Source: Methanobacteriota archaeon | Lineage (GTDB): Archaea; Halobacteriota; Methanomicrobia; Methanomicrobiales; Methanoculleaceae | NCBI GenBank assembly: GCA_030446015.1 | Contig: JASUSO010000002.1 | Coordinates: 1,925 to 65,924 of the forward strand | Direction: 5' to 3' | DNA: 64,000 nucleotides | Shown here: positions 17,293 to 31,716 of the stretch, in pieces | Layout of the letters: every line of letters begins with the position of its first letter | Position numbering within the stretch: position 1 is the first letter of the stretch | The notes under the pieces: generated by a model | What the model saw: only the letters and a program-made list of their open reading frames with translations | What the model was told of the DNA's origin: nothing | Databases searched by the model: none | Made by a program: the position numbers and the translations under genes

Positions 17293-18258
17293 ATGGTCGA
17301 GATCGGCTATAAACTGGCATGCGAGGAGCACGCCCCCTCGGAACTCGTCTGCAGCGCCCGCCAGGCGGAAGATGCAGGGTTTGCGTTTGCCATGATATCG
17401 GATCACTACCATCCCTGGACGAGCAGGCAGGGGCAGAGCCCGTTCGTCTGGGGTGTCATCGGCGGCATAGCGCAGGTTACGGCGGATCTCCGGATGGTGA
17501 CGGGCGTCACCTGCCCGACGATGCGGATTCACCCCGGCATCATCGCCCAGGCCGCCGCGACCGCCGCCATGATGATGCCGGGGCGGTTTGCCCTTGGCCT
17601 CGGTTCTGGAGAGAACCTCAACGAGCACATCTTCGGCGATCCCTGGCCGGCGGCGCCGGTCAGGATCGAGATGCTCGAGGAGGCGGTGGAGGTGATCCGG
17701 TTGCTCTGGAAGGGCGGGATGCAGGATTACTACGGTGCCTTCTACACCCTCGAGAACGCGCAGATCTTCTCGCTCCCGGATGAGCTCCCCCCGATCTACA
17801 TCGCCTCAGAAGGGCCGATCAGCGCATCCATGGCCGCGCGGGTCGGCGATGGGTTCATCAACCCGGACAGCAGCGCGGAGGAGACCCTCATTGTCTTCCG
17901 CGACTCAGGAGGGGGTGATAAACCGGCATACGTCGAGATCTCGGTCTGCTGGGCAGAGACCGAGGAGGAAGGGCAGAGGACGGCCTACGAGCAGTGGCCC
18001 ATCGCAGCAAACACCGGAGAACTCAACCGGCTTCTCCCCACGCCGACACACTACGAGCAGGTGGCGAAGATGGTGACACCGGAGGACGTGGCAAAGCATG
18101 TGGTCTGCGGCCCGGACCCGGAGGCGCATATCAAGACAATCGAGGAGCGGATCAGGATGGGGTTCGACCACGTCTGCGTCCACCAGATCGGGCACCAGCA
18201 GCGGGAGTTCATGGAGTTCTATACGAAGGAGGTTCTGCCGCATTTTGGGGAGGGATAG
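17293..18258 (+). CDS. F420-dependent LLM-class oxidoreductase (Fgd/Adf-related, TIGR03557-like)
   Basis: ISDHYHPW, GVTCPTMRIHP and GSGENLNEH motifs. Confidence 0.85.
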   Translation: MVEIGYKLACEEHAPSELVCSARQAEDAGFAFAMISDHYHPWTSRQGQSPFVWGVIGGIAQVTADLRMVTGVTCPTMRIHPGIIAQAAATAAMMMPGRFALGLGSGENLNEHIFGDPWPAAPVRIEMLEEAVEVIRLLWKGGMQDYYGAFYTLENAQIFSLPDELPPIYIASEGPISASMAARVGDGFINPDSSAEETLIVFRDSGGGDKPAYVEISVCWAETEEEGQRTAYEQWPIAANTGELNRLLPTPTHYEQVAKMVTPEDVAKHVVCGPDPEAHIKTIEERIRMGFDHVCVHQIGHQQREFMEFYTKEVLPHFGEG

Positions 18259-18400
18259 CGTCACAGGATGGGTTTGGAGGCACAAGCCCGGGCGAGAGCA
18301 AGCCGCGGTAGGCGGGAAAAACCAGTGATTGTGGGTCTTGCAACGGAAAGCCTACACATGAGGAGAAAGCCCGGTGGATCGTGGGAGTATCATCATTGGA

Positions 18401-18698
18401 GGAACGACTGCCCGCAGGATCTGACGACCCACCGGGTCGGGCTTGAGAAACTCAAAGGGCTGCGGGCAGGTGTTCGAGAAGCCCAGAGGGTTTCGCTGTA
18501 TGGGGCTGACGGAGAGGGCGACGGTTCGAAGAGCGACCGGCCGAAGGTGCGAAGAGCCGGAGCTCGACCACCGTCAAGTCATTAGGCTTCGAGTGCGAGC
18601 GAAGCGAGCTTGAGCACCGTTAGGTGCGAGGTGCGATGTTCCATCAGGAACGGAGCACGAGAAGCCGTTAGGCTTCGAGGGGGAGCATCCCCCTCCCC
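18401..18698 (+). repeat. Hairpin-rich dispersed repeat, copy A (longest)
   Basis: Shares sequence blocks with 31265-31442 (reverse complement) and 25016-25168 (reverse complement). Several perfect stems, e.g. GCACC-GTTA-GGTGC, GAAGCC-GTTA-GGCTTC and GAGGGGGA-GCA-TCCCCCTC. Confidence 0.75.
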
Positions 18699-18721
18699 TC
18701 TCTCCAACCCATAACTGTGAG

Positions 18722-20264
<1,543 letters not shown>

Positions 20265-23918: not shown

Positions 23919-24935
23919 TCAAGCATACTTCCCGACGAAATCGAAGACTTTTCGGGAGATCTCCTCGGGCTCATGACCCATGAGGTAGGCGAGCGTCAGA
24001 GCCCCGCCGGCCCCCATCCCCTCCTTGACCTCGCCGATGCAGTAGCGTGCAAGCCCGACGTGACCGATCTCGGCGAAGTTCGGGTCGACGTAGTATGCGG
24101 CGGTGCCGACGTCGGCGACCGACCTGGCAAACCCGGCGGAGGGATCGTCCCTGACGTAGACCGTCGTCGCGAGGCGCGGCACCCGTTTTCCGAGCGCTTT
24201 CAGGACGGCCGCGACGGAGAGCATCTGGGTCCCCCCGGCGAACATGACCTCGCCGGCGTAGGCGCTCGCGATCCCTGCAGCGACCGGCATCATGGGGTCA
24301 CCCGTGGCGCGGAGGATCTCGAGGGGCTCTCGTGCGCCCGTCGCCTCGATCCGGGCGAGCGCTTCCCGGCAGACGGCATCTTTCAGCCCGATAGGGTTCT
24401 CTATAAACGCGCTGCTGACCGAGGCGTCGTAGCCGAGCGCACGCAGAACGCAGAGGGCGGTGGTCGTCCCGCCGGGGACGCACTCCCCGAGCATCAAAAA
24501 GTCGCTGTACTGTGAGAGCAGCCTCCCGACCGCTTCGCCCCGCTCGAAGAGGGCTGCCGCCTGCGGCACTGCATCCTCCTTCCTCGGGTCGCCGCCGGGG
24601 CTTCCGTAGACGTCGATGCAGGGGACGGTGGGGGTGTTGGCGAGCCCCGCGTTGATGATGACGGGGCACAGGCCGGTCAGTTCCACCATCGACCGGGTGA
24701 TGGTCGCGGGCGTCGGACAGCCGGTGGGGGTGTTCGGCCGGGCCGCGACACTCGTGATCGCGCCGGTCGTGACGAGCTCCGCGTCCAGGTTCGGGGTGAG
24801 CAGGGTCTTTTCGGGGGAAGGCCCGGCTCCGGATATGCCGGGGACGGTGGAGAGCATGGTGTTACCAAGGACGAGCGCCAGCATCGGGCGGCGGGGCCGG
24901 ATCCCGGGATCATCTGAGAGGAACGGATTGGACAT
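23919..24935 (-). CDS. cobT: Archaeal nicotinate-mononucleotide:base phosphoribosyltransferase (CobT-like)
   Basis: PTPATIT, GECVPGGTTTA, AGGTQM and VKEGMGAGG motifs; adjacent to cobZ-cobS. Confidence 0.85.
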   Translation of the reverse strand: MSNPFLSDDPGIRPRRPMLALVLGNTMLSTVPGISGAGPSPEKTLLTPNLDAELVTTGAITSVAARPNTPTGCPTPATITRSMVELTGLCPVIINAGLANTPTVPCIDVYGSPGGDPRKEDAVPQAAALFERGEAVGRLLSQYSDFLMLGECVPGGTTTALCVLRALGYDASVSSAFIENPIGLKDAVCREALARIEATGAREPLEILRATGDPMMPVAAGIASAYAGEVMFAGGTQMLSVAAVLKALGKRVPRLATTVYVRDDPSAGFARSVADVGTAAYYVDPNFAEIGHVGLARYCIGEVKEGMGAGGALTLAYLMGHEPEEISRKVFDFVGKYA

Positions 24936-25015
24936 TGTATACAGGATAGGCGCCGCGGGATAGAAGAGGTTGCTGTCGGGGCGTACGGGGGGGGGTGCGG
25001 CGGTCGAACGTGGGC

Positions 25016-25168
25016 GGGGAGGGGGAGCTCCTCCGGCCCGTCGTCACTCGCACCTGCGGTGCTCAAACTCCGCCTGCTCCTGCTGCTCGCGATGCTCGCA
25101 CCAGTCGCAACTCGAAAACGCTTCGCGTTTTCTCGAGCTCCGGCCGCTCGCACCTGACGGTGCGAGCG
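25016..25168 (-). repeat. Hairpin-rich dispersed repeat, copy C (short)
   Basis: CTCGCACCTGCGGTGCTCAA (25047-25066), CGCTCGCACC-TGAC-GGTGCGAGCG (25145-25168) and GGGGAGGGGGAGCTCCTCC (25016-25034) match blocks of copy A in reverse complement. Confidence 0.7.
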
Positions 25169-25220
25169 CCCATCGCTAACACAAACCCAAAAATACCTCC
25201 AAAAACCAACCACTTCAATA

Positions 25221-25664
25221 ATGTTCGAGATTGAGCGCAGGCTGGAAGAGAAGGGCATCGTAAGGAGAGATATCGTCGCCGCCGCGATGGAACTCTACGT
25301 CCCCCATGGGATAGGGGCGGATGAGGCCGCGCGCAGGCTTGATGCAAAGATCGGGAAGGCGCTCGAAGACCCGAACATCTCCTCGCTCCTCCTCGGCGCC
25401 CTCCTGCTCGAGGACGAACTCTACGTGAAGCGAAAAGACTCCGAGATCGCCGACGACCCGGTCTTCCTCCTCTCCGACGAGATCATAGGGATGGCCATCG
25501 CCGAGGTGATCGGCGGAACCTACGCACGGTTCGAGTTCACTCGCTACGACCAGAAGAAGCCGGGGATCCTGGCCAAACTCGGGCCGTTCCTCGACGACGC
25601 CGTCGCCGGGCTGATCGCCGGCTGCACGTCGCGCCTCTACAGCGAGTCGATGGGATCTCTGTGA
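25221..25664 (+). CDS. cobZ: Alpha-ribazole phosphatase CobZ (PgpA-like)
   Basis: DPVFLLSDEIIG...RYDQKKPGIL..LGPFLDD motif; directly upstream of cobS. Confidence 0.82.
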   Translation: MFEIERRLEEKGIVRRDIVAAAMELYVPHGIGADEAARRLDAKIGKALEDPNISSLLLGALLLEDELYVKRKDSEIADDPVFLLSDEIIGMAIAEVIGGTYARFEFTRYDQKKPGILAKLGPFLDDAVAGLIAGCTSRLYSESMGSL

Positions 25665-31219: not shown

Positions 31220-31264
31220 CACAACATCTTCCGGAATTCTCAAGACCCGGATTCCCGCACTTTG

Positions 31265-31442
31265 CGGCTTCGTGCTCTCGCATCTTCGATGCTCATGTTC
31301 CGTTCCTCGTACCTGAAGTGCTCGCGTTCGCTTTCGCTCACGCCTCGCGCCTAACGGTGCTCGCGCTCACTGCGTTCGCGCCTCGGAAACCCCTTGGGAT
31401 TCTCGAACTCCTGTCCTAGCGGACAGTCGTTCCTTGCGGAAC
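31265..31442 (-). repeat. Hairpin-rich dispersed repeat, copy B
   Basis: Reverse complement matches copy A: 26/31 nt at 31386-31416 and 18/19 nt at 31344-31362, plus the GGAACGACTG and GAGCACGA(G)AAGCCG blocks. Confidence 0.75.
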
Positions 31443-31716
31443 GTTGCACTTAGCACCTGGCGATGCCCGAACTCCGTTCTTCGCGTGAGGCCGGACATCG
31501 CATATAGACGGTTTAACTCACACAGAATGGGGGCGGGAGCGAGTTCGAGCGGCTCTCCGGGTGCGGGAGGTGCAAAGAACCCGGAGGCGACGTCGAAGTT
31601 TTGAATTTGAGGTGACAATAGGCAACAGAGTCAATAGGCTTCAGGGGTGTTGGACGGCTAATTGTGCCAAGCACAGGTGCTTAAAAATGGGTGTGAAAAG
31701 AGGGGTTCGCCGGGAG

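Follow-up and report, generated by a model that had tools for sequence, protein, structure and literature searches.

The element at about 18364-18704 on the plus strand of the window, by which we mean the whole 64,000-nt stretch of DNA that was analysed, is a solo and degenerate left half of an intergenic repeat that occurs throughout the genus Methanoculleus; its right half is missing. We read this element, copy A, as a partly decayed member of a non-coding, Methanoculleus-specific mosaic repeat that resembles REP/BIME elements and acts, or merely persists, at the level of DNA, and we put the probability of this reading at roughly 0.6. A DNA-level repeat is favoured over an RNA gene because of the loop rules of its hairpins, the symmetry of its two strands and the lack of a sense-strand bias. 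The original prediction had placed a modular, hairpin-rich and dispersed family member at 18401-18698 and had left it as either a structured RNA or a REP/MITE-like element. These coordinates lie inside the element and cover part of it, and of the two options the REP/MITE-like one is the better, whereas a novel structured RNA gene is not upheld. Copy A occupies a gap of 463 nt between convergent genes, and the stop codon of the P-II gene lies 18 nt beyond its tail. Its parts and neighbours, and two more decayed members in the window, are the following (T1 and T2 denote the two types of end found in the family).

17293..18258, plus strand: luciferase-like oxidoreductase gene, left neighbour of copy A.
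18364..18388, plus strand: degenerate T2-type end AGAAAGCCCGGTGGATCGTGGGAGT (family consensus AAAgCCCgGTACAGTGGACCGTGGGGnT, from 69 T2 ends and flank alignments).
18389..18402, plus strand: decayed inverted-repeat box ATCATCA, then TTGGAGG (consensus TATCGCCA, then TTGGGGG, the first G-run of the quadruplex motif).
18401..18498, plus strand: expanded module m3, GGAACGA and the stem CTGCCCGCAG/CTGCGGGCAG, then GAGAAGCCC-AGA-GGGTTTC (from folds, family alignment and covariation).
18502..18516, plus strand: B box GGGGCTGACGGAGAG, G-runs 2-3 of the rPQS motif with the CTGAC central loop, one mismatch.
18517..18592, plus strand: run of decayed hairpin modules GGTTCGAAGAGCGACC, GGCCGAAGG, GACCACCGTCAAGTC and ATTAGGCTTCGAG.
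18593..18630, plus strand: module m1, GTGCGA-GC-GAA-GC-GAGC and TTGA-GCACC-GTTA-GGTGC-GAG, with a GCGAAGC mini-hairpin.
18631..18679, plus strand: module m2, GCGA-TGTTCC-ATCA-GGAACG-GAGC and ACGA-GAAGCC-GTTA-GGCTTC-GAG.
18679..18704, plus strand: hairpin GGGGG-AGCAT-CCCCC, C-tract and tail CCCCTCCCCTCTCTC (consensus CCCCTCCCCTGTCTC); the C3TC3 tract of rPQS and the end of the left half.
18722..19069, minus strand: P-II gene, right neighbour of copy A, adjoined on the same strand by an ammonium-transporter (Amt) gene.
24978-25175, minus strand: third locus, a more decayed member; a G-rich stretch, then modules CTCGCACCTGCGGTGCTC, CTCGAAAACGCTTCGCGTTTTCTCGAG and CTCGCACCTGACGGTGCGAG, forward on the minus strand.
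About 31252-31470, minus strand: copy B, a more decayed member; box ATCGCCA (31464-31458), then decayed modules.

The ordered blocks that were predicted to be common to copies A and B were all found again. The blocks GGAACGACTG(C/T)CC and GAGCACGA(G)AAGCCG occur in both copies, in the 31-nt block at 18464-18494 as many as 26 of 31 positions agree with 31386-31416 read in reverse complement, and the block GAGCACCGTTAGG(T/C)GCGAG is present at 18612-18630 and 31362-31344; an independent repeat search returned this last pair as the longest inverted match in the window (42 nt, 81%). The change from CTGCCC/GGGCAG in copy A to CTGTCC/GGACAG in copy B is real, and the stem of copy A is actually 10 bp long, with CTGCCCGCAG (18408-18417) pairing to CTGCGGGCAG (18460-18469). 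Within this m3 stem are nested the two extra hairpins CGACCC-ACC-GGGTCG (18425-18439) and TTGAG-AAA-CTCAA (18443-18455), on which RNA and DNA folding agree, where copy B has a GCTA loop. The modules of copy B include m3 (CTGTCC-GCTA-GGACAG) and a GCGAAAGC mini-hairpin, while its G-quadruplex core and tail are absent; copies A and B and the third locus are all without most of the core. Copies A and B each read forward downstream of a co-oriented gene. The third locus sits in a divergent gap (23919..24935, minus strand, and 25221..25664, plus strand) immediately upstream of a gene start, and is one of a minority of family copies in promoter-side DNA. Two open reading frames were listed across copy A, 18268..18585 (plus strand, 105 aa) and 18574..18861 (minus strand, 95 aa). 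As indels of 36, 45 and 49 nt, together with inversions, set members of the family apart, we dismiss both as shadow frames of the G/C-rich repeat, which would be false gene calls.

A separate repeat of about 122 nt, unrelated to the family, leaves a fragment, CTCACGCGAAG, at about 31493-31483 on the minus strand of the window. It is present outside the window at C67:20338-20459 of the same genome (G000; ..TCTCACGCGAAGAGCGCGAAGCCGCGAAG..CTTCGCGGCTTCGCGTGAG.., with a long hairpin), and two more contigs (C14, C50) as well as at least five further genomes of Methanoculleus carry copies with 94-97% identity. Since its copies are far more uniform than those of the hairpin-repeat family, their sequences suggest a recently active element.

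The architecture of the family is best seen in full units of about 175-200 nt, the minimal complete ones measuring about 175-182 nt from end to end. From the left, an end (T1 or T2) is followed by TATCGCCA, the G-quadruplex motif, a G/C hairpin, TGTCTC and a spacer of about 15 nt; the right part continues with CCTGTAACCCCCACCCC, a second G/C hairpin, GCAGTGCGTGGCGATA and the second end. The box forms a nearly invariant inverted pair of 8-9 bp, TATCGCCA/TGGCGATA. The T1 end has the consensus cccNNNcACGGmTTTCCannGGaT. The left core reads TGGGGG(A/T)GGGGCTGACGGGGAG, a hairpin GGGGG-loop-CCCCC and TCCCCTGTCTC before the variable spacer, whereas the right core reads CCTGTAACCCCCACCCCGCCCG, a small hairpin in one of two versions (GGCC-TYC-GGCC or GCGC-TTC-GCGC), CCTCCTC, a hairpin CCCCGCCCC-loop-GGGGCGGGG and GCAGTGCGTGGCGATA. 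The ends are conserved over about 25-35 nt and conservation falls off beyond them. The absence of terminal inverted repeats, noted in the original prediction, is true of copy A taken by itself, but conserved ends and an inverted box do exist in the family. The core hardly varies among 16 copies taken from various loci and species, and its predicted fold is therefore beyond the reach of covariation, the GGCC/GCGC hairpin excepted. Copies are 85-95% alike and mosaic rather than near-identical.

The two ends combine in several ways. Among 44 complete units the pair T2/T1 is found in 29, T1..T1 in 13 and T2..T2 in two; copy A has one end only. End-to-end spans do not exceed 683 nt, except for two that are probably separate elements, and A-rich stretches lie upstream of T2 ends. 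Halves can also be found singly or back to back, with 108 solo and 150 paired half anchors counted. The top strand of the left half, and the bottom strand of the right half, is the G-rich one and carries the forward modules; modules located outside the boxes face outward, and the folding strand of each half runs 5'->3' inward from the outer end. The halves thus fold on opposite strands, so that the whole unit would not be present in its folding sense in any one transcript, whereas transcripts entering from either side would carry the folding strand.

The variable part of the family consists of small hairpin modules of the form CGA-stem-G(N)NA loop-stem-GAG, so that a tandem G.A/A.G step and a C-G pair lengthen the stem. 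Arrays of such modules, usually ending in GAG, slot in at fixed junctions, which are end/box, box/B box, GGGGAG/first hairpin and CCTCCTC/second hairpin. Inserts between GGGGAG and the first hairpin were present in 29 of 75 distinct units (21 of these 29 end in GAG), and inserts between CCTCCTC and the second hairpin in 24 of 51. The recurrence of the modules is far above chance: searches with nhmmer gave 22, 22 and 53 matches in this genome for three module types, and the pattern GAGCACC-G(N)NA-GGTGCGA occurred 75 times against none for the reversed control. The predicted modular and dispersed nature of the family, with further copies across the genome, is thereby borne out. Copies of m1 with 93-94% identity lie on the contigs C27, C11, C75, C102 and C66. 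Hairpin density is 25 per kb in the repeats and about 5.5 per kb elsewhere, and G..A loops account for 46% of loops in the repeats and for 13% elsewhere. The loops are mostly GNA triloops (GAA 66, GCA 30, GTA 20, GGA 12); the remainder are mainly GNNA tetraloops, and among roughly 95 such tetraloops only about 10 are GNRA. Judged by their sequences, both the loops and the CGA..GAG flanks would contain sheared G.A pairs. Modules are also arrayed in tandem, with repeat periods of 37, 46 and 94 nt. Such arrays of the GCACC hairpin module were noted at contig ends of G044 (C1, C2, C5, C6, C7) and at G019:C1:124244-126046, with periods of 45-46 nt (up to eight units at one contig end) and of 94 nt; G019 carries 87 module hairpins but only two core right ends. 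The tandem GCACC arrays indicate that modules can behave as minisatellites independently of the G-rich core.

Covariation had been proposed from two copies and is corroborated by 40 distinct copies of m3. Pairing was observed in 96.3% of cells, compared to 84.5% after shuffling and 29-41% when the partner columns were slid, and 69 cells with double changes were counted where 23.9 were expected; none of 500 shuffles reached the observed values. Five pairs of the apical stem alternate among G-C, C-G, U-A and A-U, and RNAalifold added an outer GAAC/GTTY helix beyond the G.A/A.G step. On the forward strand G-U pairs (33 cells) are far more frequent than A-C (4 cells), which indicates that the strand as written is the folding one, an asymmetry that rests on the m3 alignment, as the count over all hairpins gave only two cases.

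Elements of the family are abundant in the host genome and confined to its genus. A library-based BLAST search of this assembly (105 contigs, 2.10 Mb) recovered 126 repeat regions with a total of 18.1 kb, of which 52 are situated at contig ends (about a quarter of the 210 contig ends), so that the true repeat content must be higher. Repeats of this kind spawn spurious open reading frames and break assemblies. By gene calls that are crude in this assembly (an ORF and GC3 heuristic), 93% of the repeat bases are non-coding. The repeats lie in 29 convergent, 26 tandem and 10 divergent gaps against a background of 244, 806 and 282, 15% of the copies being between divergent genes, and the family is enriched at the 3' ends of genes. 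The right-end 16-mer was found in 45 of 48 Methanoculleus genomes with 0-43 copies per genome, some species having 0-2 and others 31-43 (none for the reversed control), and was absent from seven genomes of five other genera of the same family. With one genome per species, the conserved 23-mer ATCGCCACGCACTGCCCSCSCCC occurs in at least 116 stretches, and among the matches listed all belong to Methanoculleus or to MAGs labelled Methanomicrobiales or Methanobacteriota. The hairpin pattern GAGCACC-G(N)NA-GGTGCGA reaches 133 per genome in other species and is sporadic in three other genera of the order. A replichore strand bias of the module hairpin was considered and rejected, as both strands are intermixed in the complete genome G003.

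Comparison of orthologous sites showed both empty and filled states for copy A. In five species the site is empty, with a gap of 31-66 nt. Other species carry a full unit whose left end is T2 and whose right end is T1, with the core in either orientation between the TATCGCCA boxes, one way in G027 and G006 and the other way in G018 and G037; the whole unit is inverted in G020, and G040 has several units. The locus L165 of G034, orthologous to 18259-18721 of the window, holds a coreless relic in which T2 and T1 are joined as GTGGACC|GTGGCGAT, and the 5-nt microhomology CGTGG at this joint fits a deletion of the whole core. The states follow the clades in a tree of the flanking genes, and so they are fixed lineage differences and not assembly noise. 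A second locus, on contig C67 of this genome, is empty in at least four species, and an inversion of about 420 nt that includes the unit separates two species groups. The empty C67 site of G007 (L237) carries ACGTGCATGGG at the very position of the inserted block in related species; this resembles the outer part of a T1 end (CCGTGCATGGGG) and, judged by its sequence, may represent either a footprint or a favoured target.

Whole modules of 36, 45 and 49 nt, each bordered by GAG on either side, distinguish orthologous units from one another, the 49-nt module m2 being present or absent between the orthologous elements C67 and L009; the predicted gain and loss of whole helices is thus seen directly. 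Orthologous units also swap the GGCC and GCGC versions of the small hairpin while their flanks are nearly identical. Together, module indels and version swaps fit patchy gene conversion among copies better than stepwise compensatory mutation. As more distant species have empty sites, one old insertion followed by rearrangement would explain each locus. In a comparison of core with flanks for signs of purifying selection, confined to five orthologous pairs, the identity of the core was similar to or slightly higher than that of the flanks.

No autonomous partner with the same ends was found in end-to-end spans, viral contigs or among Y1, TnpB and RT genes. Direct repeats of 6-9 nt around 44 units were no commoner than in mismatched pairs of flanks, and in view of this lack of a target-site duplication of at least 6 nt transposition is not shown. 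No gene lies inside the end-to-end spans in about 1 Mb of element-rich Methanoculleus DNA. Partner genes of the kinds named in the original prediction are not present in this genome, which has no TnpB Zn-ribbon or RT gene and only a sub-threshold match of 20 bits to PF01797 (RAYT/Y1). PF01797 passes the cut-off in 10 of 41 genomes of the genus and is absent from G003 and G032, both complete and rich in the repeat; the distribution of Y1 does not follow that of the repeat, and Y1 was rejected as its partner. A viral origin was considered as well and rejected. The right-end 23-mer had no match in IMG/VR viral contigs, and of 53 matches to the module pattern the one inspected falls within coding sequence on an unrelated contig (about 53 kb) and is uninformative.

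In the outward direction the T1 end (ATCCAnTGGAAAgCCGTG..GGGG) resembles an Orc1/Cdc6 origin recognition box (ORB), defined as the dyad TCCAnTGGAAA, 1 nt and AAGGGGT, and was considered as one. This was rejected, as only three T1-type ends contain the dyad and the G-string at that spacing is missing from all of them. The full motif TCCAnTGGAAAnnAAGGGGT is carried by five ORB-type sites, four near orc1/cdc6 on C57 and one on C1. A likely replication origin, outside the window, lies at C57:22281-23202 upstream of orc1/cdc6 (C57:20997..22280, minus strand), where two ORBs, GTTCCAYTGGAAAYRAAGGGGT, flank an AT-rich stretch; of the other ORB-type sites, two are near C57:19000-19200, and the one at C1:8088 is close to a second Cdc6_C match.

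According to the DNA-level reading, it is while the DNA is transiently single-stranded that the hairpins and the quadruplex/hairpin switch would form. Diversity presumably arises by recombination or gene conversion among copies, by slippage of module arrays and by inversion between inverted repeats, and spread would require an agent acting in trans, or recombination. A barrier or insulator between convergent genes is a candidate, and unproven, role for the host; if the elements are such barriers, they bear on how transcription ends in GC-rich archaea. A bolder version, which we consider distinctly unlikely, sees the units not as passive junk but as genus-wide, rearranging non-B-DNA cassettes. 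In these a recombinase, of the host or another, would recognise the near-invariant boxes TATCGCCA/GCAGTGCGTGGCGATA and flip the core with its quadruplex in place, and modules would be gained or lost at GAG junctions via single-stranded intermediates. The family would then be a RAYT-independent archaeal counterpart of REP/BIME and could serve between convergent genes as a barrier that stops transcription or replication from both sides. Should enzymes drive the inversions or the changes of modules, these would point to an unknown archaeal system of recombination or mobilisation.

Against the DNA-level reading it must be said that the covariation and the G.T wobbles of the forward strand fit a folded RNA equally well. 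The elements might act as RNA in cis, with read-through transcripts from either flank meeting the hairpin-forming, G-rich strand, and so serve as two-way stabilisers of 3' ends, terminators or roadblocks. The inward 5'->3' course of the folding strand in each half agrees with this, as do the excess of G-U over A-C, the forward placement of copies A and B downstream of co-oriented genes, the RNA fold of copy A (z-score -5.1) and the enrichment in convergent gaps, both in our counts and in published ones (PMC8044849). The outer flanking gene is co-oriented with the folding strand in 162 of 227 halves (162 against 65), and with the folding strand equal to the sense strand of the adjacent gene in 71% of halves there is room for a role in 3' UTRs. 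Yet in tandem contexts solo halves do not favour the sense strand (13 co-oriented, 10 anti-oriented), the rPQS motif is equally frequent in sense and antisense (PMC8044849), the loops are mostly GNA/GNYA and not GNRA or UNCG, no T-run of the archaeal termination type lies inside the element, and divergent gaps hold their share of the copies. We regard a cis-acting RNA as unlikely, though it is the main rival. Independently transcribed genes for small structured RNAs are very improbable. Covariation, strongly negative folding z-scores and the A-rich stretches upstream of T2 ends speak for them, but Rfam had no match at the gathering score over the window (only sub-threshold chance matches at the E-value threshold), there is no conserved TATA-like box at a fixed distance and conservation does not extend past the ends, the two halves have opposite folding strands, and the core inverts in place without loss. 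Nor do a copy number of 0-43 per genome, three members in the window that are without most of the core, and hairpin loops of the DNA mini-hairpin type suit such genes.

The MITE part of the prediction needs a similar caution. A classical MITE would be a deletion derivative of a DDE-type IS, moved in trans by a transposase that recognises the T1 and T2 ends. The conserved ends, arranged as an inverted T1..T1 pair in 13 of the 44 complete units, would suit it, and so would presence or absence at orthologous sites between species, the wide variation in copy number and the breaks of assemblies at the repeats. We nevertheless give it little chance, as no target-site duplication of at least 6 nt was above chance, the commonest arrangement is T2..T1 and not an inverted pair, no gene-carrying unit appeared in about 1 Mb of element-rich DNA, the copies are mosaic with 85-95% likeness, and solo halves are common. 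The Correia element and the MITEs of Sulfolobus share with our family a small size, the absence of coding sequence, intergenic positions, conserved ends and polymorphic presence. They differ from it in that it has no detected target-site duplication or cognate IS, its ends are not a simple inverted pair and its internal modules are variable.

The REP-like reading remains the preferred one, and here the likeness is closer. REP/BIME elements of enterobacteria and REPINs are extragenic imperfect palindromes in alternating orientation that form mosaics with other conserved boxes. They number tens to hundreds per genome and are found at gene 3' ends and between convergent genes, also as inverted doublets. 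Extragenic location, mosaic structure, alternating palindromes, a copy number in that range, inverted doublets and enrichment at 3' ends and in convergent gaps are shared by the present family. In contrast, it has no cognate RAYT/Y1 (PF01797 is missing here and in 30 of 40 further genomes of the genus, repeat-rich complete ones included), its host is an archaeon, it carries a G-quadruplex core, and its hairpins are much shorter (4-7 bp) and obey the loop rules of DNA mini-hairpins.

The family had been left without a name in the original prediction, but its G-rich core has one, being the same sequence as the rPQS of Methanomicrobiaceae, a G-rich core with a C-tract published in 2021 (Front Microbiol 2021;12:647851; PMC8044849). 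The rPQS (recurrent potential G-quadruplex sequences) have four G-runs; the first loop is 1 nt long, the central one 3-5 nt (CTGAC in Methanoculleus) and the last a single A, and in Methanoculleus a C3TC3 tract comes next (PMC8044849). The family consensus TGGGGGAGGGGCTGACGGGGAGGGGG follows this four-run rule, whereas the motif is broken in copy A: of it only GGGGCTGACGG is left, with GGAGG as run 1, GGAGAGGG as run 3, and 163 nt of modules between run 3 and run 4. The C-rich tract directly 3' of the motif, which in rPQS is complementary to the last G-runs, is present in copy A (GGGGGAGCATCCCCCTCCCC at 18679-18698), and copy A, between convergent genes, shares the intergenic, multi-copy and tail-to-tail character of rPQS. 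All rPQS are intergenic, about 50% tail-to-tail, 39% head-to-tail and 11% head-to-head, with sense and antisense equal and no strand preference (PMC8044849); this split matches the 29, 26 and 10 gaps counted here. Related variants with the central loops GCA and ACC form a quadruplex, hairpin or triplex in vitro, and a similar G-rich/C-rich repeat exists in E. coli (PMC8044849). The published description covers only the G/C core of about 40 nt, without the ends, the inverted box TATCGCCA, the second half, the modules, their indels and the in-place inversions. Within the literature searched, modules, ends and in-place inversions appear to be undescribed.

The modules find their closest parallel in DNA mini-hairpins. 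GCGNAGC and GCGNNAGC are exceptionally stable as DNA, and GTTA is tolerated (PMC13037366). The RNA r(GCGAAAGC) melts at 39 C compared to 76.5 C for the DNA form (PMC13037366), and for d(GNA) loops the closing pair has a strong influence on stability (PMC3201870). The loops of the modules are likewise G(N)NA closed by C-G, with GTTA common, and the literal GCGAAGC is present in copy A (18597-18603), as is GCGAAAGC in copy B. Known mini-hairpins are single sites at phage or plasmid origins and in promoters, whereas those of our family, predicted from sequence, form dispersed and covarying arrays. Bacterial dispersed structured repeats (REP, BIME, REPIN, Correia) have been studied in depth, archaeal ones hardly at all, and the present family joins a G-quadruplex/hairpin switch validated in vitro with arrays that follow the rule of stable DNA mini-hairpins and with boxes that bound inverted cores.
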